Virus record (IMG/VR): IMGVR_UViG_3300042993_000007
Span: 71-64,070 of that record
DNA from: a virus
Taxonomy: Duplodnaviria; Caudoviricetes
Length of the DNA stretch: 64,000 nt
Direction: 5' to 3' (one strand)
The stretch's first letter is position 1. The number at the start of each line of letters is the position of its first letter. The notes under the pieces were generated by a model that searched no databases, was not told where the DNA came from, and saw nothing but the letters and a program-made list of their open reading frames with translations. Positions 17,693 to 44,500 of this stretch are shown here, in pieces. The position numbers and the translations under genes are program-made.

Positions 17693-19159
17693 TTAGCGCG
17701 GACGCTTAACCGAACTGTCTTCGATGAGGTACAGTTCGGCCTGAGCGCGTGTAGTAGCAACATAGCACAGGTTCATTTCCTGTTGTTGCTGCCATGGCTG
17801 TTTCGCCCACGGTGCAGGGCACTGACTGGAGTTGAGCCAGTACACCCGAGGCGCCTCCATACCCTTGGCCTTGTGGATGGTTGCGAGTGTAACCACATTG
17901 GTTGCATCGCTGAACAACTGGTCAATGACGGCCAGCAACGCCGGGATGGTGCGGTCGGTTTCCAGCAGGTTCTGTATCAGGAACAGCATGGTGTCGAGCT
18001 TGTCACCGATGGCTTCCACCTTGCTGTCCTGGCACTTGGCGACGGCCTTTTCAGTTTCGCGGGCTGCCCAGTTTTCAAGGTTGGTTGCCAGGGCGTCGAT
18101 GTTCTTGGCGTTCATGCGCTTGATGAGGGTCTTAAGCCCTTGGCCAATTTCACGCCCAAGGATGCAGGCTTTGATTTTGGCTTTGATGAACTTGAATGCC
18201 AGGGTGACCAGCGGCTTGGTGGTGCGGCACAGAATGAGGTCGCCCGGTTGGAAGGTAGTGAGCTCCCACCCTTTACCCAGGTTCTCCACAACGCCCATGG
18301 GCGCCCCTGGTGCCGCCTCAATTTGCGGTGCCCACTGCTGGGCGTGCTCAACCACAGCAGCGGGGCAGCGGTACGACACTGTCAGCGGCAGCTCAACGCA
18401 GTTGAACTCCTTGGCAATAAGGTCCATTGAGTTTGAGTCGGCACCGCGGAACCCGTAAATGGCCTGGGCAGGGTCGCCCACTGCGATCACCCGGCTGGTG
18501 GGCTTGAGCATCTTGCGCAGCAGGGCGCGCTGAATGGCGTTGGTGTCCTGGGCTTCGTCAACGAACACTACGTCGTACTTCGGAAGCACAATGCCCTCAC
18601 GCACTGCCATGTAAAGCAGGTCGTCAAAGTCAACCATGTCGCTTTGATTGGACCAGCCCAGCAGGTCACTGGCCAGCTCCAGGGCACGCCCCAGGTTGCC
18701 GCTTTCGTTGTCGAGTTCCAGGTCGTAGTGGGCAACGATGTCAACCCAACTGGCTTCCACGTCGTCAACGAGGCAGCCGATACCCACTTGGCGGGCCAGC
18801 CCTACCAAGCGTTTGATGAAGTGGCCATATATGAACGCATCGTCACCGCTGAGGTGCTGCTGCACCAGGATGCTGAGCTTGTCGGCGTCGACCTGGCGTG
18901 TACCCTTGAAACGGGTGACTGGGCTGTAGGTAACGGAGTGGAATGTGCGGGCATTGACGCCGCGTGCCTTCAGCTCTTCAGCGATGGACTTGTTGAAGGC
19001 GAGTAGGATGCTGGTGCAGTACTCAGGCAGCAGGCTGTCGGCGTGGCATATGGTGGTGGTCTTGCCGGACCCGGCTACAGCTCGGACGATGGCGCTGCCA
19101 ACCCCGTTCTCTACGAAATCAAAGATGTTGTTCTGATAGGTGGACCATTGTCTTGCCAT
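17693..19159 (-). CDS. UvrD/Rep-family (SF1) helicase
   Basis: AVAGSGKTT, FVDEAQD, VGDPAQAIYGFRGA, SYRCP, TIHKAKGME, NLCYVATTRA. Confidence 0.92.
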   Translation of the reverse strand: MARQWSTYQNNIFDFVENGVGSAIVRAVAGSGKTTTICHADSLLPEYCTSILLAFNKSIAEELKARGVNARTFHSVTYSPVTRFKGTRQVDADKLSILVQQHLSGDDAFIYGHFIKRLVGLARQVGIGCLVDDVEASWVDIVAHYDLELDNESGNLGRALELASDLLGWSNQSDMVDFDDLLYMAVREGIVLPKYDVVFVDEAQDTNAIQRALLRKMLKPTSRVIAVGDPAQAIYGFRGADSNSMDLIAKEFNCVELPLTVSYRCPAAVVEHAQQWAPQIEAAPGAPMGVVENLGKGWELTTFQPGDLILCRTTKPLVTLAFKFIKAKIKACILGREIGQGLKTLIKRMNAKNIDALATNLENWAARETEKAVAKCQDSKVEAIGDKLDTMLFLIQNLLETDRTIPALLAVIDQLFSDATNVVTLATIHKAKGMEAPRVYWLNSSQCPAPWAKQPWQQQQEMNLCYVATTRAQAELYLIEDSSVKRPR

Positions 19160-19234
19160 GATGAAGCTCCCTAACGAGGCGCCCACCGAACGCGGTGGGC
19201 GTATTCACAGCATAGCGCGGAGTTTCCTGAAAGG

Positions 19235-24345: not shown

Positions 24346-24606
24346 ATGCAAACCACTCCGCCAGATGCTACAGAAGCCAATACAGCTCAGCAACGCTTTG
24401 ACGAGTTGTATATCACCAGTACCGAAGTATCCCAGGAAATGGGTGTGCCACGGGCCACGGTGCTTTATGCCCGTCGCCGGGGCTTACTCCCTGACCCTAT
24501 TACCATCAACGAAAAACAGATATACCTGTGGGAACGCGCCACCGTGCGCCCTTACATGGAAGCCTGGAAACTCAGCCTAGCTTGTCGGAGAGGCCAACTG
24601 GTATGA
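24346..24606 (+). CDS. MerR/AlpA (excisionase-like) HTH protein
   Basis: ITSTEVSQEMGVPRATVLYARRRGLLPDPI...YLW. Confidence 0.75.
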   Translation: MQTTPPDATEANTAQQRFDELYITSTEVSQEMGVPRATVLYARRRGLLPDPITINEKQIYLWERATVRPYMEAWKLSLACRRGQLV

Positions 24607-27005
24607 GCTCTGCGAGTCTCCACTGGGGGCGCGTACCGTTAGAGCTCAGGAGACTTAAGCGCTGGTGTGTAGCTGGCCCTGATAAGTCTCCATATGCCAT
24701 CGGACCGAAAGGCCTCTACCGTGCTAGTGATACTGACCCTAATGACTGGGGCACGTTCGAAGATGTTGCGGCTTACGCCCACAGCATCGACGCACATATA
24801 GGCTTCGTACTGCATGCGGGTGACGGCCTTACCTGCATTGACCTTGACGTTAAGAACCAAACGAACGAACCCAACGCTGCCAAGTGGACCACCCAGGCTG
24901 AGCTGGACCGCTACTGGCGTATCGTGCAATCGTTCGACAGCTACACTGAAAAGAGCCGCTCGGGCCTGGGCTTGCATACCTGGGTGTTAGGTGAGATTGG
25001 CCTGGGTTGCCGACGCCAAGGTGTCGAGGTGTACTCCCAAGCGCGGTTCATGATAACCACAGGTAACGTTGTGCTGGATCGGCCGGTGGCCGAACGCGGT
25101 GGTCTGCTGGGCCTGTTGGTGTCAGAGATCCGTGCTGCCCAGGAGGTCACCCACGTTGAGCTGGAAGAGCTTGAGGAAGTTGAAGACGACGCTACTATAT
25201 TGCAACGGGCTATGGAAGCTGACAACGGCGATAAGTTCAATGCCCTGTGCGCTTGCACCAGTTGCGTTGGAGATGGTGACCGCAAGGTCCACGGCACCTA
25301 CCAGGAGCTAGGCTACCCAACCCAGTCCGAAGCTGACTTGGCACTGATGTCGATCTTTACCTTTTATAGCAACTCCAACGAGCAGTGCCGCAGGCTGTTC
25401 CGTATGTCTGGCCTGGGCCAACGTGAAAAGGCCCTGGTCAACGACCGCTACCTGAACCGCACCCTCAAGATTATCCGTGGTCGGCAGTCCCGTGAGCTGG
25501 CCATTGACGCCGATGGCATCAAGCAGGCTGCCGCCCTGGTGGCTGAGATCCAGGCTGGCCAGTACCGCCCTACCTACGACGTTGACCCCATGGCTGCCCA
25601 GGCGTTGGCCGCTGCACCGGTTGCGGCTGCCCTGGCGCCCATAGCGGCCACTGACGACGACCGGCTACCCTGGCCCCCTGGCTTCGCTGGCGCCCTGGCT
25701 GGCTTCATCTACCAAAGCAGTCCCCGCCCCATTCGTGAGGTGGCAATCGTTGCCGCGATCGGGTTGCTAGCGGGCATCTGCGGGAAGGCGTACTGCATAC
25801 CGCAGTCGGGCCTCAACGTTTATATGGTGCTAGTGGCGCGGTCTGCTATCGGCAAGGAGGCGCTGCACAGCGGCCTAGCAATGCTGATGGCTGCGGTGCG
25901 TGAGTCAACCCCTGCTGCAATGAACTTCCTGGACTTCTCTGAGTTTGCCTCCGGGCAAGCACTTCAAAAGGCGTGTGCGATCAACCAGTCGTTCTGCAAT
26001 GTGTCCGGCGAGTGGGGTCGTAAGCTGAAACGCCTTGCGGCTGAGGATGGCCGCGATGGGCCGATGCAAACCCTGCGCACGGTGATGACCAACCTTTACC
26101 AGAAGTCTGGTCCAGCTTCCATCGTTGGTGGGGTTGCGTACTCCAAGAAGGAGGACAACGTAGCCTCGGTGTCCGGCGTTGCCTACAGCATGATCGGAGA
26201 GACAACTCCAGGCACGTTCTTCAAGGCGCTGACTGAAAGTATGATGGAAGACGGTTTCCTATCGCGCTTTAGTCACGTGGAGTACCTGGGGCAACGGCCA
26301 CGGGCCAACCCCAACCCGCTAAAACGCCCTGACCGCGCCCTTACAGACGCGCTGTGCGGCTTATGTGTGCAGGCCATGACCTTGCTGAGCCGGTTCCAGA
26401 CGTGCTCTGTGCTAAACGACCCACAGGCCGAGGCGTTGATTACCGAGTTTGATCTTGAGTGTGATAAGCAGATTAACAGCACTGACGATGAAAGCTGGCG
26501 GCAGATGTGGAACCGGGCGCACCTAAAGGTGTATCGACTGGCCGCACTGATGGCAGTGGCAGACAACTGGCTCAACCCTGTGGTTAACCTCGCTCACGCC
26601 ACCTGGGCGCTCGACCTCGTTAAGCGGGACATCGCCCTGATGCAGAAACACATGGAGGCCGGTGATGTTGGCCTGGGGGACTCGTCCAGGGAGCGCAAGC
26701 TGCTTAACATCATGGGTGAGTTCCTGGCACAGCCAATTAGCTCAGGTTACGGCATACCGGAAACCATGCGCTTCGATAGCATCGTGCCACGCAAGTTCCT
26801 GCAGATACGTTGCCAACGTGTTAGTTCGTTTACTGAGTACCGCATGGGCGCCAACATGGCGATGGATAATACACTTAGAGCTCTCTGCGATAACGGTTAT
26901 ATTCAAGAAGTTGAACGCAGTACACTTGTCACTAAGTACGGGTTCCAGGGTAAAGCGTATCGAATTATCTCTTTGCCGGACTCTGCTAAGTTGCGAAAGC
27001 GTTAA
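24603..27005 (+). CDS. Primase-polymerase (NrS-1-like AEP domain) with C-terminal helicase-like domain
   Basis: CIDLD, EKSRSGLGLH, EVYSQARFMITTG, QSEADLAL...LFRMSGL; C-terminal VARSAIGKE P-loop variant; ATGA overlap at 24603. Confidence 0.85.
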   Translation: MSSASLHWGRVPLELRRLKRWCVAGPDKSPYAIGPKGLYRASDTDPNDWGTFEDVAAYAHSIDAHIGFVLHAGDGLTCIDLDVKNQTNEPNAAKWTTQAELDRYWRIVQSFDSYTEKSRSGLGLHTWVLGEIGLGCRRQGVEVYSQARFMITTGNVVLDRPVAERGGLLGLLVSEIRAAQEVTHVELEELEEVEDDATILQRAMEADNGDKFNALCACTSCVGDGDRKVHGTYQELGYPTQSEADLALMSIFTFYSNSNEQCRRLFRMSGLGQREKALVNDRYLNRTLKIIRGRQSRELAIDADGIKQAAALVAEIQAGQYRPTYDVDPMAAQALAAAPVAAALAPIAATDDDRLPWPPGFAGALAGFIYQSSPRPIREVAIVAAIGLLAGICGKAYCIPQSGLNVYMVLVARSAIGKEALHSGLAMLMAAVRESTPAAMNFLDFSEFASGQALQKACAINQSFCNVSGEWGRKLKRLAAEDGRDGPMQTLRTVMTNLYQKSGPASIVGGVAYSKKEDNVASVSGVAYSMIGETTPGTFFKALTESMMEDGFLSRFSHVEYLGQRPRANPNPLKRPDRALTDALCGLCVQAMTLLSRFQTCSVLNDPQAEALITEFDLECDKQINSTDDESWRQMWNRAHLKVYRLAALMAVADNWLNPVVNLAHATWALDLVKRDIALMQKHMEAGDVGLGDSSRERKLLNIMGEFLAQPISSGYGIPETMRFDSIVPRKFLQIRCQRVSSFTEYRMGANMAMDNTLRALCDNGYIQEVERSTLVTKYGFQGKAYRIISLPDSAKLRKR

Positions 27006-28490: not shown

Positions 28491-29000
28491 ATGAGGGTGA
28501 CCATCATTACCGACGCATCCTGGTGTCCAACCACCAAGGTTGCCGGATATGGATTTTGGGTCGCCTGTGAACGGGGTCGGCGTCGTGGTGGTGGCACCAT
28601 CAAGACGCTGGTTCCTAGTAGCTTGGCGGCTGAGATGATGGCCATGGTGAACGGGTTGTGCCAGGGCATGCGGTTGGGGATGATCTCCAGCGGGGACGCG
28701 CTACTGATTCAGACGGACTGCCAGTCGGCCATCGATACGTTCAGCAAGTTCCGCAACCCTGGTGATGATGTTGAGGCCCAGGTAGTTGCACACATGGAAG
28801 AGCTTTGCGGCACATGCAGTCTGTCGGTTGAATACCGACACGTTAAAGGGCACACCCAGGGGCGCACACCGCGCACATACGTCAACAACTACTGCGACGC
28901 ACAGGCTAAGAATTATATGCGGGAACGCAGGGGCAAGGCGTTCATTGAACAGTGTCGAGACGCTGTAGATAAAGCCAACGGAGAGCTAAATGAACTTTAA
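28491..29000 (+). CDS. Ribonuclease H-like protein
   Basis: ITDASW, AAEMMA, IQTDC, RHVKGH, NNYCD. Confidence 0.88.
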   Translation: MRVTIITDASWCPTTKVAGYGFWVACERGRRRGGGTIKTLVPSSLAAEMMAMVNGLCQGMRLGMISSGDALLIQTDCQSAIDTFSKFRNPGDDVEAQVVAHMEELCGTCSLSVEYRHVKGHTQGRTPRTYVNNYCDAQAKNYMRERRGKAFIEQCRDAVDKANGELNEL

Positions 29001-29338: not shown

Positions 29339-30292
29339 ATGCTACCGAATCTCGCCTGTGACTGGGATGAGGCTAAGCAACGCTTTCCGGCGCTGCTGCT
29401 GCCTAAGATCGACGGTGTGCGCGGCTTGAACATGGAAGGCCAGCTCACTGGCCGCAGCCTCAAGACGCATGCCAACCGGTACACGACCAAGTTCTACTCC
29501 GGCTCTGAGCTGATGGGCTTGGACGGCGAGATGGCAGCTGAGGACGAACGTCACCCGGACTTATGCAGGTTGACCACAAGTGCGCTGAACACCATCGTTG
29601 GCGAACCGTTCACACTGTGGCACCTGTTCGACTATGTAACCGAGGCGACCGCTGGGCTGCCGTACTACCGACGGCACGAGCATCTTATGTCCCACGTTGC
29701 CAGCATGCAGAACGCTGGGCCATTGCAGCCCTATGGGCACCTGCGGGTGGTTGGCTTCCGCATTGTCAACAACATGGAAGAGCTACAGGCTGCGGATGAC
29801 GAGAACCTGGACAACGGGTACGAGGGCAGCATCCTTCGGGACCCTAATGGCCTGCACAAGCAAGGTCGCAGCACCGTGAAAGAAGGTGGATACCTGCGCA
29901 TAAAGCGGTTCATAGACTCGGAGGCTGTGGTCATCGGTATTGAGCAGGGCCAAACCAATACCAACGCAGCCCAGGTGAACGAGCTCGGTGGGCAGTTCCG
30001 GACTACGCACGCCGAAGGCATGGTGCCGAACGGCCAAGTTGGCGCTATGCTATGCCGTGCCCTGGCCGACGTATACGATCCCGTGCAGAAGACCAAACTG
30101 CTGATCGCCAAGGACCAGGAAATCATCGTTGCACCTGGGCGCATGCCGGTCGCGCTGCGCAAGTACTACTTCGAACACCAGAACGAGCTGCTCGGTCAAA
30201 CGATCAAGTATAAGTTCTTCCCTAAAGGTATGAAGGACAAGCCACGCTTTCCGACGTACCAATCGCATCGCGCAGCCAGCGACATCTCATAG
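29339..30292 (+). CDS. ATP-dependent DNA ligase
   Basis: PKIDGVR, LDGE, YEGSILR, LRIKRF, KPRFP. Confidence 0.92.
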   Translation: MLPNLACDWDEAKQRFPALLLPKIDGVRGLNMEGQLTGRSLKTHANRYTTKFYSGSELMGLDGEMAAEDERHPDLCRLTTSALNTIVGEPFTLWHLFDYVTEATAGLPYYRRHEHLMSHVASMQNAGPLQPYGHLRVVGFRIVNNMEELQAADDENLDNGYEGSILRDPNGLHKQGRSTVKEGGYLRIKRFIDSEAVVIGIEQGQTNTNAAQVNELGGQFRTTHAEGMVPNGQVGAMLCRALADVYDPVQKTKLLIAKDQEIIVAPGRMPVALRKYYFEHQNELLGQTIKYKFFPKGMKDKPRFPTYQSHRAASDIS

Positions 30293-30300
30293 GGGTTAGT

Positions 30301-31137
30301 ATGAGCATTCTCCAACAGGTTTCAAACGCACCCAGCCGCCAGGGCGTTCGTATGGTGGTGGCGGGTGTGGAGAAGGTGGGTAAGACCACTTTCGCCGCTA
30401 GTGCGCCCAGGCCCATCCTGGTGCCGCTGGAGGTTGGTGCAGTAGGCATCACCGTCAACAAGACGCCAATGCTTCAGAAGCTGCAAGACACCGAGCAGTT
30501 TATTGCGGAGGTGTTGGCCGCTTGCCAAGCTGGCCAGTTCCCGTACCAAAGCATTATCTTTGATAGCTGCACAGCGTTCGAGCGCCAGATCCATGACTCG
30601 ATCATTGAGGCCGACCCAAGCTGGGCCAAGGGTAACAAGCGCTCGGTAACAATGGAGAGCGCCCTGGGTGGGTACGGTCGGGCGTACACCTACGCCAACG
30701 AGCGGTTCGACTCGTTCCTAAAGCAGTGTGACGTCCTGGCGGTGTTGTGCGGTATCAACATCATTTTCACCGCCCACGTATTCGCCGCCAAAATGATGGA
30801 CCCTACCCAGGGTGAGTACGATAGCTGGGACCTGCTGCTGCACTCTCCGAAGAACCAGAAGACCTACGGCAAGCGTGAAATTATCACGCAGTGGGCAGAC
30901 GTGGTGGGCTTTATGTACGAGCCGATGTACATCACCAAAAGTGACAATATGTCCAAGGGCGTCAGCGCCAACAAAGGGCGCGTGATGGGCTTGAGCAGAA
31001 CTCCTTCTTACGTGGCGGGAAACCGTTACGGCGTTGAAGGCGAGGTTTCCATTCCCCGCCAGGGCGGGTGGAATCAACTTGCGCATGCAATCTACAATGC
31101 CAGCGGCATTGACCTTTTTAACCGCGATATAGTGTAA
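30301..31137 (+). CDS. Sak4-like AAA ATPase (recombination)
   Basis: GVEKVGKTTFA, IIFDS, IIFTAH, AGNRY. Confidence 0.8.
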   Translation: MSILQQVSNAPSRQGVRMVVAGVEKVGKTTFAASAPRPILVPLEVGAVGITVNKTPMLQKLQDTEQFIAEVLAACQAGQFPYQSIIFDSCTAFERQIHDSIIEADPSWAKGNKRSVTMESALGGYGRAYTYANERFDSFLKQCDVLAVLCGINIIFTAHVFAAKMMDPTQGEYDSWDLLLHSPKNQKTYGKREIITQWADVVGFMYEPMYITKSDNMSKGVSANKGRVMGLSRTPSYVAGNRYGVEGEVSIPRQGGWNQLAHAIYNASGIDLFNRDIV

Positions 31138-31149
31138 GGAAATCCCCAT

Positions 31150-32079
31150 ATGGCTTCGCTGAACTTTAATGCCCAAACTGTTGCACCGTCCACCGGCCAG
31201 TTGGATGCCATGCCGAAAGGCTGGTACAACGCGCTTATCGAGAGCTCCGAAACCAAGCCGACCTCCAAAGGTGACGGCTCGTACCTGGAACTGAAATTCA
31301 AAATCATTTCCGGGCGTTTCCATAACCGCAGTGTGTACGCACGTTTGAACCTCAACAACCCCAACCCGGTTGCCCAGGAAATCGCGTACAAAGACCTGAG
31401 CGCAATCTGCCACGCCACCGGCATCCTGAGCGTCCAGGACAGCAGCCAGTTGCACAACATCCCGTTGAAGATCCGGCTCAAGGTGCGCAAAGGCAACGAC
31501 GAGTACGACGACAACAACGAAATTTCCGCGTTCAAGAATATCAACGAGCAGGTGAAGCTCGCCGACGACGAGAACCCGGCTCCTGGTGCGGCTGGCGGCT
31601 ACCAACAGATGCCACCGCAACAGCAAATGCCTCCGCAGCAAATGCCTCCTCAGCAACAACAGCAAATGCCTCCACAGCAGCAGTATCAACAGCCGCCTGT
31701 GCAGCAGCAACAGCAGATGCCGCCTCAGCAGCAGTACCAGCAGCAGCCCCCAGTGCAGCAACAGCCGCCGATTCAGCAACAGCAGCCGCAGTACCAGCAG
31801 GCCCAACAGCCTTGGCAGCAGCCTGACCAGCAGCAACAGCAGCAACAGTATCAGCAACAGCCGCCAGTCCAGCAGCAGATGCAACAGCAGCCGCCAATGG
31901 ACCAGCCTCCGCAGATGCAGCAGCAGATGCAACAGCAGCCTCCGGTGCAACAACAGCAGCAGATTCCTCCGCAACAGCAGCAACAGCAACAGCCTCCTGT
32001 GCAGCAACAGCAACCGTACAACGGTGCTCAGCTGAACAACCCTCAAGCAGCTATTCCACCTTGGCAGCAGCCGCAGTAA
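31150..32079 (+). CDS. DUF669-type ssDNA-binding protein with about 160-aa Gln/Pro tail
   Basis: MPKGWYNALIESSE...YLELKFKII...RLNL...NEISAF; CAG/CAA-rich 3' half. Confidence 0.75.
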   Translation: MASLNFNAQTVAPSTGQLDAMPKGWYNALIESSETKPTSKGDGSYLELKFKIISGRFHNRSVYARLNLNNPNPVAQEIAYKDLSAICHATGILSVQDSSQLHNIPLKIRLKVRKGNDEYDDNNEISAFKNINEQVKLADDENPAPGAAGGYQQMPPQQQMPPQQMPPQQQQQMPPQQQYQQPPVQQQQQMPPQQQYQQQPPVQQQPPIQQQQPQYQQAQQPWQQPDQQQQQQQYQQQPPVQQQMQQQPPMDQPPQMQQQMQQQPPVQQQQQIPPQQQQQQQPPVQQQQPYNGAQLNNPQAAIPPWQQPQ

Positions 32080-32139: not shown

Positions 32140-33141
32140 ATGCCAAACGTTACCATAGCCGTGGAGACTATACGTCTCCGTGAGCGGCTTCTTGAGCAAG
32201 ACCAAGGTTCTAACTTTCGTATGTGGCTTGGCCGCGTGCTTCCGCACATAGGCGACGCATACAGGGAAGGTGAAGAGAGCTTCCGGACGCACATGGGCGC
32301 GAGCCTCATCGGTGCGGAGTGTCCGCGTGAAATCTGGTATGGCTTCCACTGGACTACAAAGCCGCACTTCCCAGGCCGCATACTGAGGCTCTTCAACCGG
32401 GGTCACCTGGAGGAAGGACGGTTCATTGCACTGATGCTCATGTGCGGGTTCCAGGTGTACCAGCAGGACGAGCACGGTAAGCAGTTCCGTATCAGCCACG
32501 CTGGTGGGCACTTCGGTGGCTCAGGTGATGGTGTGGTTATCGGCCTGCCAGACCTGGCACCTGGGCAAGCTGCGCTAGCCGAGTTCAAAACGCACAGCGA
32601 AAAGTCATTCCACGAGCTGGCTGGCAGCAACTGGAAGGACCATGTTGACGTGCTGTGTGGGCGCCCAAGCACGGCCAAGGACACGAACTTTACCGGCAAG
32701 GGTGTGCGCGAAGCCAAGTTCGAACACTTTGTCCAGATGCAGATGTACATGCGCAAGATGGGGTTAGCCGTCGCGCTGTACGAGGCTGTCAACAAGAACG
32801 ACGACTCTATCTACTCCGAGTTGGTACACCTGGATTCGCTGCTAGCAGACCAGTTCCTGGAGCGCGGCCAACTGCTAGTGTTCGCTGACACACCGCCAGC
32901 CCGCATCGGTAAAAGCATCGGGTTCTACAAGTGCCGCTTCTGCGACCACAAGGCTGTGTGCCATCAGCAGGCCGCACCTGCTGTCAACTGCCGCACCTGT
33001 AAACACTCCCGCGTGATCGCAGACGGCACCTGGGCGTGCGTACACCCGACGCAATGGGGTGCCGGTGATAGCCACACATTACCGAAGGAGATCCAGTTCA
33101 CCGCGTGCCCTTCCTACGAAGCCAGTGACTTTACGATATGA
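32140..33141 (+). CDS. Cas4/AddB-like PD-(D/E)XK exonuclease
   Basis: SLIGAECPR, GSGDG, EFKT, QMQMYM, CRFC...C Fe-S cysteines. Confidence 0.82.
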   Translation: MPNVTIAVETIRLRERLLEQDQGSNFRMWLGRVLPHIGDAYREGEESFRTHMGASLIGAECPREIWYGFHWTTKPHFPGRILRLFNRGHLEEGRFIALMLMCGFQVYQQDEHGKQFRISHAGGHFGGSGDGVVIGLPDLAPGQAALAEFKTHSEKSFHELAGSNWKDHVDVLCGRPSTAKDTNFTGKGVREAKFEHFVQMQMYMRKMGLAVALYEAVNKNDDSIYSELVHLDSLLADQFLERGQLLVFADTPPARIGKSIGFYKCRFCDHKAVCHQQAAPAVNCRTCKHSRVIADGTWACVHPTQWGAGDSHTLPKEIQFTACPSYEASDFTI

Positions 33142-34961
33142 CCTGTCTGACGCTGCTGCCTCGGGAGTACCAGATCGAGGCGGTGTCGTCCCTTTACTGG
33201 TACTTCGAAAACTACCCGGTAGGCAACCCAGTGGTCGCCATGCCCACCGGGACAGGGAAGTCGATCGTTATTGCGATGTTCCTGCAAAGCGTTTATCAGA
33301 AGTGGCCGAACCAGAAAATCCTTGTGCTCACCCACGTCAAGGAGCTCATTCAGCAGAACTACGAAGAGCTCGTTGGCTTGTGGCCCCAGGCACCGGCTGG
33401 CATATACAGCTCCGGGCTTAACAGGCGGGACACACGGAACTCCATCGTGTTCGCTGGTATCGCTTCGGTTGCCAAGCGCGCGGATGAGTTTGGCCGCGTC
33501 GACCTTGTAATGATTGACGAAGCGCACCTCGTTAGCCCGACCGAAACAACGATGTACCGCAAGTTCCTTGCGCAGCTGATGGTCACTAACCCCATGCTGC
33601 GCGTTATCGGGTTGACTGCCACACCCTGGCGCCTGGGGCACGGCAAAATCACTGACGGCGATGAAGCGCTGTTCACCGACGTGTGCTTCGACATCACCGG
33701 CATTAACGCATTCAACCGGCTCATTGCCGAAGGCTTCCTCAGCCCCCTGGTGCCCAAGCCAACGCAGACGAAGCTTGACGTCGATGGCGTTCACATGCGG
33801 GGCGGTGAGTTCATCCAGGCAGAGCTGCAACGCGCTGTCGACATCGATGACATCACTGAAATGGCTTTGCGCGAAGCCATGGAGTACGGGCACAACCGGC
33901 AAAGCTGGCTGATCTTTTGTGCAGGGGTTGAACACGCCTGCAACACGTCGCGCATACTGAACGACCTGGGCATTCCGTGCGGCGTAGTCCACTCCGACAT
34001 GAGCACGGGCGAGCGCGACCAAGTATTCAAGGACTTCAAATCCGGCAAGCTGCGCGCCCTGGCAAACAACAACGTCGCCACCACCGGTTTCAACCACCCA
34101 CCGGTTGACCTGATCATCGTGCTGCGGCCGACTGCGTCGTCTGTGCTGTGGGTGCAAATGCTTGGTCGCGGTACACGCCCATACGACCCACGCAAACCCG
34201 GCAAAGTCGACCCTATGGCCTTCCCGCTATATAAGCGCAACTGCCTTGTCCTGGACTTCGCTGGTAACACCATGCGCCTTGGGCCAGTCAACGACCCGGT
34301 GGTGCCGCAGAAGAAAGGCAAGAAGGGTGGCAAGGCACCTGTCAAGCTTTGCGAGAAGTGCAACACCATGGTTCACGCGAGCCTGGTTTGGTGCAACACA
34401 GAGCTTGACGACGGCACCATCTGCAACAACGAGTTCCCGAGGGAAGTACACATCGGCACCCAGGCGGGCACCGAGGTACTCGTCAAGGGTGACAACCCTG
34501 TAGTCGAGGTGTTCAAGGTTGACCACATTACCTACACCACCCACACAAAGTCCGACAGGCCGGACAGCATTAAAGTGAAGTACTACTGCCACATGAACAG
34601 CTTCAACGAGTTCGTGTGCGTCGAGCACCAGGACTATGCAGGCAAGCGCGCCCGTCGCTGGTGGCGCGAACGCAGCACCGAGCCTATGCCTGCAACCACC
34701 AAGGAGGCGATGGAAGTTCTTCAGCAGGGCCAAATGATGGCAGCGACGCACCTGCGGGTGTGGTTAAACAAGAAGTACCCTGAAATCCTGGCCTACTGTT
34801 ATGACGGCAGTGCGTTCGGGACCCAGGTGCCAACGGTCGACGACAACCCGACCCAGGAAGTTGTCGGGCCTCGTAGTATGCACCTGCCAAACGTCAACCC
34901 GAACCCCGAGGCTGGGGACCAGCCGGATTTCGATAGCTTCGACGACGACATACCTTTTTAA
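33138..34961 (+). CDS. SF2 helicase, RadD/YejH-like, ending in an SSB-tip motif
   Basis: PTGTGKS, IDEAH, GLTATP, TTGFN, QMLGRG, CEKC...C...C Zn finger; C-terminus DFDSFDDDIPF. Confidence 0.9.
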   Translation: MTCLTLLPREYQIEAVSSLYWYFENYPVGNPVVAMPTGTGKSIVIAMFLQSVYQKWPNQKILVLTHVKELIQQNYEELVGLWPQAPAGIYSSGLNRRDTRNSIVFAGIASVAKRADEFGRVDLVMIDEAHLVSPTETTMYRKFLAQLMVTNPMLRVIGLTATPWRLGHGKITDGDEALFTDVCFDITGINAFNRLIAEGFLSPLVPKPTQTKLDVDGVHMRGGEFIQAELQRAVDIDDITEMALREAMEYGHNRQSWLIFCAGVEHACNTSRILNDLGIPCGVVHSDMSTGERDQVFKDFKSGKLRALANNNVATTGFNHPPVDLIIVLRPTASSVLWVQMLGRGTRPYDPRKPGKVDPMAFPLYKRNCLVLDFAGNTMRLGPVNDPVVPQKKGKKGGKAPVKLCEKCNTMVHASLVWCNTELDDGTICNNEFPREVHIGTQAGTEVLVKGDNPVVEVFKVDHITYTTHTKSDRPDSIKVKYYCHMNSFNEFVCVEHQDYAGKRARRWWRERSTEPMPATTKEAMEVLQQGQMMAATHLRVWLNKKYPEILAYCYDGSAFGTQVPTVDDNPTQEVVGPRSMHLPNVNPNPEAGDQPDFDSFDDDIPF

Positions 34962-35754: not shown

Positions 35755-36492
35755 ATGTACTTCACAATCGATATGTGTAGGCTGCTGGTGCTGCATAAGC
35801 ACCCTTCGTTCGTTGTGGTTGGTGCGCTAGCCGACCTCGAAATACCCGACTCGGCTTACTTCATTACGCAGCTCGATACCGAGCGTCGCCTGTACACCAT
35901 CGGCGAAAGCCAACTTGTCGAACTGTACCGCAACATCACGGGCGAGCAGCCGCAACACACCGGCAACCAACTGCGCAAGCTTATACTCGAACTCGCTAGC
36001 CGCTTGCCCGAAACCGATGTGCGACAGGCCGAAGTCGAAAGGCAGTGCGACTATGCCACTGCCCACCCTGCCGACGGGCCTTACCGGTACGTGCGTGGGG
36101 CCAGCAGGCCGCACCGTGCCGCCGAGTTGGCCCCAGGGTTAACCACAGGGGTTGCCAGCGACCCTGGCAGCGTACTGGCAACGTTTGTGGCGCCCAAGGC
36201 CAAGGCCCAAACCTTTGTGCTTTCGCCAGACATGCGCGAACCAGCGGAACCCGAGCCAAAGGCACCCAGGGCGCCCAGGGCACCGGGTAGCGCACCGAAG
36301 GGTGGTGTACGCCAAGTCATCTGGGACACGGCCGACGCCATGTGGCAGGCTGCGGGCCAGCCGAAAGACAAGCGCGAAGTCCTCGCTTTACGCAAAGCGG
36401 TTATGGATGAACTCGAGACGCAACATGGTGTTAAGCGCACCAGCAGTTCCAACGAACTCGGCAACTGGCAAAAGGCGCGTATCACCGTGTAA
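35755..36492 (+). CDS. Paralog family member B (divergent)
   Basis: C-terminal PKGGVRQVIWDTAD...ELGNWQK. Confidence 0.7.
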   Translation: MYFTIDMCRLLVLHKHPSFVVVGALADLEIPDSAYFITQLDTERRLYTIGESQLVELYRNITGEQPQHTGNQLRKLILELASRLPETDVRQAEVERQCDYATAHPADGPYRYVRGASRPHRAAELAPGLTTGVASDPGSVLATFVAPKAKAQTFVLSPDMREPAEPEPKAPRAPRAPGSAPKGGVRQVIWDTADAMWQAAGQPKDKREVLALRKAVMDELETQHGVKRTSSSNELGNWQKARITV

Positions 36493-41537: not shown

Positions 41538-42494
41538 ATGCTTAAAGAACTCAAGTTCGTCCAGGGCGCGGTCGCTAAGAAGAGCTTCGTGCCTGAGCTA
41601 ACCCACTTCCAGATTCGCAATGGGTTCGTACGGGGTTATAACGGCAGCCTTGCGCTCTGCGCACCCATTGCCCTGGACTTTGACTGTCTGCCAAAGGCCG
41701 AGGCGCTGGTCAAGGCGATACAGAACTGCAACGACACCATCCAGCTCAGCGTTACCCAGGCGGGGCGGCTCAGCATTAAGAGCGGCACCTTCAAGGCGTT
41801 CATTGACTGCTTTGACACCCACGAGACGCCTGACCTGGAGCCGGAGGGCGAGCCTATCGAGTTTGATGGCGTTGCCCTACTACACGCCCTGAAGACCATT
41901 GCGCCGTTCGTTGGTGACGATGCTAGCCGCCCCTGGGCGAATGGCGCGCTGCTGAAAGGGCAGTCGGTATATGCCACCAACAACGTAGTTCTGGTTGAAT
42001 ACTGGGTTGGTGTGCAGTTCCCCAAAATACTCAACCTGCCACGGTCTGCAATCAAGGAGATCATACGCATCGGTGAACCGCCAACGAGCGCCCAGTGTAC
42101 GGAGAACAGCATTACCTTCCACTACCCTGGCGGTCGGTGGATTCGTAGCCAGCTTCTGGCGGTGCAGTGGCCCGACCTGGAGCTGGTGCTTAGCAAGGAG
42201 TCTACCCAAAGCCCACTAGACAAACGGCTGTTCGACGGGCTTAAGGTTGTCAAGCCGTTTGTGGACAAGATGGGTCGCATACTGTTTGACGCCAACGGCA
42301 TACGCACCCACCACGATGAAGGTGAAGGCGCTGCGTATGAAATTGAAGGGTTCAACTGCGAGGGTGTGTACGCCCTGGAAATGCTGGAGCTGCTGGATGG
42401 TGTGGCCAACACTATCGACTTCACAGCGTACCCTAACGCCGCGCTGTTTTACGGTGACCGGCTGCGCGGTGCCATTATTGGACTGTTGCTATGA
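41538..42494 (+). CDS. DNA sliding clamp (beta-like)
   Basis: 318 aa directly upstream of polymerase; LTHF...YATN.. repeats typical of beta-clamp-like phage proteins. Confidence 0.7.
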   Translation: MLKELKFVQGAVAKKSFVPELTHFQIRNGFVRGYNGSLALCAPIALDFDCLPKAEALVKAIQNCNDTIQLSVTQAGRLSIKSGTFKAFIDCFDTHETPDLEPEGEPIEFDGVALLHALKTIAPFVGDDASRPWANGALLKGQSVYATNNVVLVEYWVGVQFPKILNLPRSAIKEIIRIGEPPTSAQCTENSITFHYPGGRWIRSQLLAVQWPDLELVLSKESTQSPLDKRLFDGLKVVKPFVDKMGRILFDANGIRTHHDEGEGAAYEIEGFNCEGVYALEMLELLDGVANTIDFTAYPNAALFYGDRLRGAIIGLLL

Positions 42495-44500
42495 GGTCTG
42501 ACGCGCTTGGGTTCTTCTGGCGGGACGAACCTGTCATCCGCGTAGTAAAGGAAAAGATAAAGCGGGTGCCACCCGAGCGCACCTGGGAGGCGCCAGACTT
42601 CCTGCCGTTCTACGAAGAGGCTTGCGCGCACGTACCAACGCTGTTCACTGACGCAGATCTGATTGCCATTGCTGGCACGGGTGTGCAGCTCGAGTACGAC
42701 ATCGAGTGTTACAAGAATTATGTACTGATTGCGTTCATCCACAAGGAAACCGGACGCATTGTTTACTTCGAGTCACACAACGACAGCTGGATGGACTTGG
42801 CGAAACTACGCTGGGTGATGCTTAACTTCACGCTGATCGGCTACAACAACAAGAACTACGATGAAACGATTGCCACCCTGGCCCTGGGCGGCATTAACAA
42901 CGCTGGGCTGAAGCGCGCCAGTGACATGATGATTGTTGGCGACGTGCCTGGGTATGAGGTACTTCGGGAGTTTAGGACCAAGCGGCTGAAGGGCTTGGAC
43001 CAGATTGACTTGATCGAGGTTGCGCCATCCTTCTGCTCGCTGAAGACCTACGCTGGCCGCATGTTCTCAAAGCGCATGCAGGACTTGCCGTTTCACCCAA
43101 GCCTTGGGCTGAACGAGCAACAGGTGACGGTGTTGCGGTGGTACTGCTTCCTTGACCTTGACCACACCAACGAACTAAAGGTTTACCTGCGGCAACAGCT
43201 CGACCTGCGCATTACCATCGGCGCCGAGTACGGCCTGGACCTGCGTTCCAAATCCGATGCGCAAATCGCTGAGTCTGTAATCTCTAACGAAATGCAGGCG
43301 CGCACCGGCCAGCGCCCAACCAAGACCACCATCCTGCCGGGTACGGTCTACTATTACAACCCACCCAGGTTCTTGCAGTTCAACACTCCCAATATGCAGT
43401 GGGTGTTGAACACAATTATTCAGACGCCGTTTATAGTCAGTGAGTCCGGGAAGGTTGGGCTGCCGGAGAACCTGAAGGAGCTGCTGATTCCCATCGGCGG
43501 CAGCAAGTACCAAATGGGTATCGGTGGGCTGCACAGTACCGAGCACGGCACGGCCTACGTTGCGTCTGAAGACATACTGCTACTCGACCGGGACGTGGCG
43601 TCGTACTACCCGGAGATCATGCGCATACTTGGCCTGTTCCCACCGCACCTGGGACCGGCGTTCCTTCAGGCGTTCAGCGGCATTGTGGACCGCCGTTTGG
43701 CAGCCAAGCGAAACAAGGACAAGGTGACAGCCGACGCCCTCAAGATTACGATCAACGGCACCTACGGCAAACTCGGCAGCGTGTTCTCTTTCCTGTACGC
43801 CCCGCACCAGATTATTCAAGTAACCATTACCGGTCAACTGGCGCTGCTGATGCTGATCGAGCGCATCGAGCTGGCGGGCCTGTCCGTTATATCGGCCAAC
43901 ACGGACGGCATTGTTACCCGGTGCCCTAAGAAAGACCACGACAAGTTTGAAGCCATCATTGCCCAGTGGGAAGCCGACACGCACTTCCAAACTGAAGAAA
44001 CCCGCTACTCGGCTTTGTACAGTAAGGACGTCAACAACTACATTGCCCTCAAGGAAGGTGGTGGGTATAAGAGTAAAGGTGTTTACGCCAACCCATGGGA
44101 CAAGAACAACCCGGACACGTTCAGTCTTAACGAGCAGCTGAAGCACAACCCAACCAACCTGATTTGCATCGAGGCGGTGCTGGCCCAGCTGATGCAAGGC
44201 GTACCTGTGGTCAGAACCCTGCGTGACTGCAACGACGTGCGCAAGTTCATCAGCGTGCGGCAAACTAAGCACGGTGCAGTGAAGGACGGCGTGTACCTGG
44301 GTAAAGCAATTCGGTGGTACTATGCTGAAGGCGTTACCGGTGAAATTATCAGCGCCAAGACTGGACACAAAATTTCCCGCAGTGACGGGGCTAAGCCGCT
44401 AATGTTGCTTCCGGACACTTTGCCAGACGATATCAATTACGACTGGTATGAAAGGGAATGCAACAAAATATTAAAATCTATTGGATACAGCGACGCTTAA
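42491..44500 (+). CDS. Family B DNA polymerase
   Basis: Exo YDIEC and GYNNKNYD; Pol DVASYYP, KITINGTYGK, NTDG. Confidence 0.92.
   Translation: MRSDALGFFWRDEPVIRVVKEKIKRVPPERTWEAPDFLPFYEEACAHVPTLFTDADLIAIAGTGVQLEYDIECYKNYVLIAFIHKETGRIVYFESHNDSWMDLAKLRWVMLNFTLIGYNNKNYDETIATLALGGINNAGLKRASDMMIVGDVPGYEVLREFRTKRLKGLDQIDLIEVAPSFCSLKTYAGRMFSKRMQDLPFHPSLGLNEQQVTVLRWYCFLDLDHTNELKVYLRQQLDLRITIGAEYGLDLRSKSDAQIAESVISNEMQARTGQRPTKTTILPGTVYYYNPPRFLQFNTPNMQWVLNTIIQTPFIVSESGKVGLPENLKELLIPIGGSKYQMGIGGLHSTEHGTAYVASEDILLLDRDVASYYPEIMRILGLFPPHLGPAFLQAFSGIVDRRLAAKRNKDKVTADALKITINGTYGKLGSVFSFLYAPHQIIQVTITGQLALLMLIERIELAGLSVISANTDGIVTRCPKKDHDKFEAIIAQWEADTHFQTEETRYSALYSKDVNNYIALKEGGGYKSKGVYANPWDKNNPDTFSLNEQLKHNPTNLICIEAVLAQLMQGVPVVRTLRDCNDVRKFISVRQTKHGAVKDGVYLGKAIRWYYAEGVTGEIISAKTGHKISRSDGAKPLMLLPDTLPDDINYDWYERECNKILKSIGYSDA

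Follow-up and report, generated by a model that had tools for sequence, protein, structure and literature searches.

Why should a bacteriophage helicase end in the C-terminal peptide of a bacterial SSB (a protein that binds single-stranded DNA), when the phage's own SSB-like protein carries no such peptide? The question is raised by IMGVR_UViG_3300042993_000007 (Duplodnaviria; Caudoviricetes), of which positions 71 to 64,070 were analysed; this stretch of 64,000 nucleotides (the window, to which all coordinates refer) is nearly the entire 64,070-bp virus record, whose completeness is given as 100% by CheckV. The + strand gene at 33138-34961 encodes a RadD-like superfamily 2 (SF2) helicase of 607 amino acids (aa), matched by ResIII (E 1e-19), Helicase_C (E 5e-15), DEAD and phrog_16 (E 2e-89), and its C-terminus reads ...GDQPDFDSFDDDIPF, followed by TAA. 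Translation of this open reading frame (ORF) confirms the starting observation of the preliminary description, namely that the helicase closes with the SSB-type tip DFDSFDDDIPF (34926-34958), an 11/11 match to the C-terminus of Pseudomonas SSB. What emerges from the comparison with related phages is an already known docking peptide placed on novel carriers, whose distribution spans the lineage and is mutually exclusive; in the open-access literature, neither a phage helicase nor a phage clamp was found to be described with an SSB tip.

The helicase comprises a folded body of about 575 residues (33138-34862), with two RecA-like motor domains, a zinc ribbon and a C-terminal domain, followed by a disordered, hypervariable linker of high entropy at about residues 576-596 (34863-34925) and by the tip. 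In an AlphaFold2 model based on a 150-sequence alignment, the predicted local distance difference test score (pLDDT) averages 91.4 and mostly exceeds 90 as far as about residue 575, but drops below 50 over residues 581-607, including linker residues 581-587 and 591-596, and the tail is not docked on the body. Since pLDDT stays below 50 from residue 581, the tail is regarded as a flexible linker, as the preliminary description had supposed. The domain scan detected neither an SSB nor an oligonucleotide-binding (OB) domain in the protein, including no match to PF00436, the family of canonical SSBs, and no PF00436 match was found anywhere in the 64-kb genome; the helicase is not an SSB. At the sequence level, its tip nevertheless has every property of the SSB C-terminal peptide (SSB-Ct): a position at the extreme C-terminus, an acidic run, a hydrophobic residue, Pro and a terminal Phe, all placed behind a disordered linker and conserved independently of it, whereas the binding of a pocket by this tip is putative.

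The conservation was assessed on loci gathered by alignment-based searches, as a query with the single protein returned only 3 loci. These loci are metagenomic viral contigs of related phages, and their counts are not independent events; moreover, the regular expression used for tips misses variant forms, and the tip counts are consequently lower bounds. The proposed survey of homologous C-termini found the motif to be conserved, with an acidic run and [IV]PF ending 115 of 121 helicase homologs (56-89% identity), while the 20-60 residues preceding it are unalignable. With the sequences right-aligned, entropy stays within 0-1.6 bits over positions -1 to -6 and is about 3.8 bits further upstream, position -7 is hydrophobic and position -8 mostly Asp in tip-bearing helicases, and the tail as a whole ranges from 9 to 85 aa (median 48). 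The D-hydrophobic-D-D-D-I-P-F pattern of the family mirrors the nine-residue SSB-Ct of Escherichia coli, MDFDDDIPF (PMC10238739, PMC11436948). Judged from this pattern of conservation, the tip is under selection.

Its counterpart in bacterial SSBs was sought in one genome per bacterial species, where at least 120 loci encode ...SFDDDIPF followed by a stop, mostly in Pseudomonas, Stutzerimonas and Cellvibrionaceae. Among the matches listed, the ORFs with this ending have a median length of 167 aa, and the commonest 11-residue ending is DFDSFDDDIPF (38/120), which occurs mainly in named Pseudomonas species (P. fluorescens, P. mandelii, P. gingeri, P. moorei and P. saxonica); one protein with this ending was confirmed as a PF00436 SSB (E 4e-37). 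The Pseudomonas SSB ending DSFDDDIPF, which the preliminary description had given, is in line with this result. When computed from the residue frequencies of the helicase family itself, the chance that the five residues before DDDIPF would match Pseudomonas SSB is about 3e-6. Because the tip equals a Pseudomonas SSB tail, the host of the phage is probably a Pseudomonas, in agreement with the nearest named phages, BL5 and pPA-3099-2aT.3. A recent capture of the 3' end of a host ssb gene was considered and rejected: the tip DNA shows 4-12 differences from 38 Pseudomonas ssb genes over 36 positions (the 33-nt tip plus the stop codon), synonymous sites differ, and the linkers upstream of the tip are unrelated. 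Given that codons and upstream linker differ, the match has been kept at the protein level, as mimicry rather than as fresh host DNA. General tracking of the host by named phages was rejected as well, with BL5, SLUR63 and EC151 retaining only a degenerate core; from these endings, exact mimicry is judged to be lineage-specific.

In a tree of 205 helicases built with the tail columns excluded, one clade of 166 sequences (support 96) bears the tip in 157 members, with few scattered losses. More basal lineages, of the Septimatrevirus, Titanvirus, Lokivirus and Rosemountvirus types, are tip-less and stop after the folded domain at ...KYPEILSxEW. An unbiased scan for DDDIPF directly before a stop codon in viral contigs retrieved four more helicases of 35-38% identity (loci L223, L256, L285 and L290), which form a second tip-bearing clade beyond the tip-less lineages and adjoin a Sak4 gene and a short DUF669 gene ending ...PPWKR, with no Cas4-like nuclease between. 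On this topology, two gains of the helicase tip are more parsimonious than one gain followed by many losses. Two neighbouring genes were also considered as partners of the tip, namely the ATP-dependent ligase, present within 8 kb on either side at 100% of tip-bearing vs 11% of tip-less loci, and a 245-aa phrog_7864 protein (35755-36492 in the window), present at 83% vs 25%; neither was identified as such, and both are read as markers of the tip-bearing clade rather than of the state of the tip. As a separate observation, three helicase homologs of 931-933 aa (P0057, P0110 and P0113) contain an intein (Hom_end, LAGLIDADG) yet end ...SDDIPF, and the helicase of locus L074 (stop-to-stop ORF of 905 aa), whose C-terminus has no tip, may be another intein case.

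The tip is also carried by proteins other than the helicase. The gene at 41538-42494 (+ strand) encodes a phage DnaN-type beta sliding clamp of 318 aa, annotated as 'processivity factor' (phrog_947) and recognized by AlphaFold2 and Foldseek, as it has no Pfam match by sequence. Its model (pLDDT 93.7, predicted template modelling score 0.88) shows a three-domain clamp fold that aligns with the beta clamps of E. coli and P. aeruginosa, with template modelling scores of 0.81-0.85 (E 1e-19, 17% identity). In the phage described here, the clamp stops with the final strand of its fold, ...GDRLRGAIIGLLL, and bears no tip, whereas in phages with a tip-less helicase the clamp continues into a linker and a tip, such as ...NYEDDIPF in PA16b, ...DPDDEIPF in RcMotherGoose and ...IEDDDIPF at locus L298. 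In a first set of 33 loci, the tip was found on the helicase but not the clamp in 10, on the clamp but not the helicase in 4, on neither in 19 and on both in 0. In a second set, made up of 68 distinct loci retrieved by way of the clamp, there were 34 clamp tips and about 5 variant tips (...SSNDIPF, ...DDNFPPF); at 9 further loci of this set, the tip lies on an ORF of 60-150 aa beside the helicase, usually just downstream. These small ORFs, whose start codons are uncurated, often display the tip after a Cys/His-rich stretch (e.g., ...CDKHEDEIPF), and four more such carriers were found outside the 68-locus set. No second tipped ORF was found within 8 kb of a tip-bearing helicase, and no locus in either set has two tipped carriers. 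In sister phages, the helicase, clamp and small-ORF carriers are all neighbours of the polymerase gene. The tip is thus portable among replisome proteins, with one per module, and the presence of a single tip on interchangeable carriers suggests that its reader lies outside the carrier. Across viral ORFs of at least 100 aa ending in DDDIPF (n=89), 32 are PF00436 SSBs, 5 are RadD-like helicases and 2 are DUF669 proteins. The same collection includes 4 Pam3_Gp34-like proteins (PF23977), 1 DnaB_C protein, 1 AAA_30 protein and about 40 ORFs without a Pfam match, at loci including L229, L250, L252 and L301.

The SSB-like gene of the described phage (31150-32079, + strand) encodes a DUF669 protein (PF05037 E 1e-11; phrog_6015, 'single strand DNA binding protein', E 1.5e-50) with a Q/P-rich tail that ends AAIPPWQQPQ, without an acidic tip, as had been reported from the sequence. 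The I-P-P-W motif near its C-terminus (32053-32064) is part of a conserved feature, since P(P)W followed by 1-9 residues lies within the last 12 residues of the DUF669 homologs at 59 of 61 related loci, regardless of the state of the helicase tip; an acidic IPF tip on DUF669 was found at none of the 61. A homologous DUF669 protein has been shown to bind single-stranded DNA (ssDNA) in phage Phi47 (PMC13687109). In HK620, the SSB encoded by a gene next to sak4, called a distant SSB homolog, ends in NDYPPF, and these six residues are required for the loading of Sak4 on SSB-coated ssDNA (PMC5928155). By analogy, PPW is probably a private docking tip of the DUF669 SSB for its Sak4-like partner. The preliminary description had proposed that the tip was relocated from SSB to helicase. 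As worded, this is not supported: because DUF669 keeps a conserved P(P)W tip of its own in all lineages, the helicase tip was added and not swapped off the DUF669 SSB. In the wider Sak4/DUF669/helicase family, however, the carrier does vary, with an SSB ending ...EIDLPF beside a tip-less helicase in Sfi21, a DUF669 protein ending DDDIPF at locus L309, and prophage DUF669 proteins carrying DDDIPF (PMC13687109), and the idea of relocation is therefore right in spirit only.

Taken as a whole, the data fit best with a hub that recruits host enzymes, which was one half of an earlier suggestion of a hub or a decoy, the decoy being left as a minor rival. A tip that is single and portable, that copies the host SSB and that is displayed on a free, flexible tail points to a reader that evolved to read host SSB and lies outside the carrier. 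We therefore favour, with belief and doubt about evenly balanced, a reading in which the helicase tip recruits host SSB-interacting proteins, the putative readers, in trans. The helicase would serve as the motor of a phage module consisting of the Sak4-like annealase, the DUF669 SSB, the Cas4-like nuclease and the helicase, with the beta clamp and the polymerase downstream. The DUF669 SSB would coat phage ssDNA and, having a private PPW tip without the host code, would leave host SSB-interacting proteins unable to arrive by their usual route, while the flexible helicase tail would display a free host SSB C-terminal peptide and act as a handle that brings these proteins to the phage fork. The candidate client would be the host clamp loader, recruited through its chi subunit, which binds SSB-Ct and thereby stabilises the clamp loader on primed DNA (PMC11436948). 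What favours chi is that the phage has a gene for a beta-type clamp but none detected for a loader: the genome has no match to DNA_pol3_delta2, AAA or chi (three Pfam models), although a divergent loader may have escaped these models. This more specific version is offered tentatively. Similarly tentative is a fuller division of the jobs of SSB, in which the private PPW-tipped DUF669 SSB would coat ssDNA and load the annealase, the movable DDDIPF handle would borrow the clamp loader via chi, and host nucleases and helicases would be kept off the ssDNA.

Several further points weigh against recruitment of host factors as set out above. The choice of chi has 'clamp without loader' as its sole ground, and at least 17 host proteins read SSB-Ct. 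In about 25 of the 68 sister loci the tip is missing from every gene within 4 kb, and in 19 of the 33 from every gene within 8 kb, so that the handle is not indispensable. All of the compared phages are kin, and the mutual exclusivity of the carriers thus counts a limited number of events in evolution. Nor does the tip track the host in general: the helicase of the P. aeruginosa phage BL5 ends ...DLDNDIPF, and those of Escherichia and Enterobacter Queuovirinae end ...PDYVPF and ...DLDVPF, weaker copies of the host tips.

A different place for the reader is suggested by the relationship of the helicase to RadD. E. coli RadD is its closest solved relative in a profile search against the PDB (E 8e-78 over residues 3-404, the next match at 2e-22) and its top structural match in Foldseek (E 1e-34 over about 615 columns, the next fold at 3e-15), and the helicase motor is homologous to that of RadD and works like it. 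Four cysteines, C405, C408, C419 and C429 (34350-34424), do not vary among 150 homologs; RadD residues 385-388, in the segment preceding the RadD zinc ribbon, are the ones aligned with the first CxxC, and the zinc-ribbon element after motor domain 2 is a putative metal site, as in RadD. A RadD-type pocket on RecA-like domain 1 might thus itself read the tip, with the clamp or the small protein delivering it in sister phages and switching the ATPase on only when the helicase is joined to clamp and polymerase; in the tip-bearing clade, the ligand would be fused to the helicase and act in cis or between molecules, as the phage SSB offers no acidic tip. RadD ATPase is indeed stimulated about 3-fold by SSB or the SSB-Ct peptide through such a pocket (PMC10238739), in agreement with the statement in the preliminary description. 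The hydrophobic pocket residues F23, F48, L123 and I157 and the basic residues K60 and R155 are conserved in the helicase family, and the arrangement would also account for one tip per module. Furthermore, an engineered chi fused to SSB-Ct by a 9-residue linker no longer interacts with SSB, which suggests that a tethered tip fills the chi site (PMC11436948).

The pocket itself argues in the other direction. All three pocket arginines of RadD are essential, and charge reversal of Arg21 abolishes binding (PMC10238739). In the phage helicase, only the equivalent of Arg145, R155, is basic (K/R in 149/150 homologs), whereas Arg21 aligns with E24 in a variable column and Arg49 with N58 in a column of N/G, in an alignment that a 5-residue insertion near this site renders locally uncertain. 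Because the arginine pocket that defines RadD is lacking, with one of three arginines conserved as basic, the protein is named RadD-like rather than a RadD orthologue. The three arginine equivalents do not co-vary with the tip and are alike in tip-bearing and tip-less helicases. Nor was the tail docked in the pocket by AlphaFold2, a check that had been proposed at the outset, although this is a weak negative given that a monomer model may miss contacts. Helix positions 50/51, which lie beside the RadD-type pocket and are Q50-S51 in the described helicase (33285-33290), are basic in 23/162 tip-bearing vs 40/48 tip-less helicases; Asp occupies position 51 in the second tip-bearing clade, and Arg-Arg is found in L002/L003, a lineage that lost the tip. 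This trend is opposite to that predicted for binding in cis, and a test of independent pairs (7 pairs) was not significant. The pocket may act as a receptor only where another protein supplies the tip. On balance, reading of the tip by the helicase pocket is unlikely, and self-activation in cis, as first suggested, is disfavoured by the loss of two of the three pocket arginines, the undocked tail and the presence of the tip on the clamp or a small protein in sister phages.

An equally unlikely possibility is that the tip binds a partner encoded by the phage, such as the polymerase, primase, RNase H or Sak4. There are precedents for contacts of this kind, as between T7 gp4 and gp5: processivity drops from 17 kb to roughly 5 kb once the gp4 tail is lost (PMC12593628), and HK620 has a Sak4 that reads its SSB at the C-terminal tip (PMC5928155). 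An RNase H of the PF00075 type is encoded by the described phage, and a defined site for SSB-Ct is on record for E. coli RNase HI (PMC10238739); the vicinity of tip carriers to the polymerase gene in sister phages would also be consistent with such a partner. A private contact, however, needs no exact 11-residue copy of a host sequence, the private DUF669-Sak4 contact appears to use a different motif, PPW, and host SSB tails would swamp any phage pocket able to read DDDIPF. Least probable is a decoy, in which the free tail would compete with host SSB, shutting down host replication and repair or diverting ExoI, RecJ and RecQ from phage DNA: the identity of the sequence with host SSB-Ct would suit such a role and the tip-less phage SSB already keeps host partners off phage ssDNA, but attachment to replisome proteins exactly once per module would be unneeded, the tails of host SSB, four to each tetramer, are unlikely to be exceeded in number by a helicase, and a small, highly expressed peptide carrier would do better.

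With respect to its genomic setting, the phage has a siphovirus-like appearance, with terminase, portal, major head and tail genes, and the helicase belongs to a long + strand block of replication and modification genes that extends from the primase to the polymerase. The block begins with a primase (24528-27005; phrog_3022 E 6e-214; PF13148, PF22763) that combines a primase-polymerase with a DUF3987 helicase-like part, followed by a MazG-like pyrophosphatase, the RNase H (28491-29000), the ATP-dependent ligase (29339-30292) and the Sak4-like (AAA_24) annealase/recombinase (30301-31137; PF13479 E 2e-29, phrog_124). Between the DUF669 gene and the helicase lies a Cas4-domain (PD-(D/E)XK) exonuclease (32140-33141, + strand; phrog_1990 E 2e-100), whose stop codon overlaps the helicase start codon in ATGA; the exonuclease is translationally coupled to the helicase. 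A Cas4-like homolog occurs in nearly all of 83 related loci (81 by count) and lies directly 5' of the helicase at every locus with checked annotation. Downstream of the helicase, three genes without known function are followed by 7-deazaguanine genes, comprising a QueE-like ORF (by similarity only), QueC (as named in the preliminary description), FolE and DpdA. The block closes with the clamp and a DNA polymerase (42491-44500, + strand; phrog_1252 E 2.5e-196) of weak family-B similarity, whose sole PDB match is S. solfataricus PolB1 (E 4e-5). A second helicase, UvrD/RecD-like and of superfamily 1, is encoded in the early region on the - strand (17693-19186; phrog_1967, UvrD-helicase, AAA_19, UvrD_C).

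Genome maintenance in bacteria has SSB-Ct as its central address label, and studies have treated it almost wholly as a property of SSB. In a large group of phages, among them Queuovirinae and the Pseudomonas phages of recent work on anti-CRISPR repair, it is a helicase that bears this label. If host proteins read the tip, it would provide a compact viral means of picking host replication factors and, if this proves true, may offer a route for loading a phage beta clamp without a phage loader. The findings are also relevant to designing inhibitors that mimic SSB-Ct and to recombineering tools derived from the neighbouring Sak4 and DUF669 genes.

Among known systems, the closest counterpart of the tip is the bacterial SSB-Ct (MDFDDDIPF in E. 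coli, ...DFDSFDDDIPF in Pseudomonas), which is likewise a C-terminal peptide on a disordered linker, with a terminal Phe, Pro at -2, hydrophobic residues at -3 and -7 and an acidic run. Here, by contrast, the carrier is an SF2 helicase without an OB fold, the phage's own SSB lacks such a tip, and each helicase molecule probably offers one copy, whereas an ssDNA-bound SSB tetramer has four. For the carrier, the counterpart is E. coli RadD (YejH; PDB 6jde, 7r7j and 8h5y), which shares the SF2 motor domains and a cysteine zinc element in the same place and is the best structural match by 20 orders of magnitude. Unlike RadD, the phage helicase does not conserve two of the three pocket arginines, bears the peptide itself, has a C-terminal domain that is not alignable by sequence, and is paired with a Cas4-like nuclease gene in a phage module.

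The tail of the T7 gp4 helicase-primase resembles that of the T7 SSB gp2.5 and ends in an aromatic residue. It is a flexible acidic C-terminal tail of a phage helicase that serves protein-protein coupling at the fork (PMC12593628), and in this respect the T7 system is similar; gp4 differs in being hexameric and DnaB-like, with a tail that reads the phage polymerase, while the helicase described here is of SF2 and displays the host SSB code rather than that of the phage SSB. The module adjoining the helicase resembles the 'Healer' pair (DUF669 Gp63 and AAA Gp64) of Phi47, a 58.7-kb Pseudomonas phage with a helicase, QueC and a P/Q-rich DUF669 tail (PMC13687109), as well as the gene module of HK620 Sak4 and its cognate SSB, whose last six residues load Sak4 (PMC5928155). 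These two accounts differ from the present case in that term searches of them revealed no mention of a helicase tip; DDDIPF is noted only on prophage DUF669 (PMC13687109). A further parallel is found in the tipped beta clamps and small proteins of the Septimatrevirus PA16b, the Titanvirus RcMotherGoose and many IMG/VR contigs, which share the replication module and display the tip on a flexible extension, and on which no paper was found; in the phage described here, unlike PA16b and RcMotherGoose, the carrier is the helicase.

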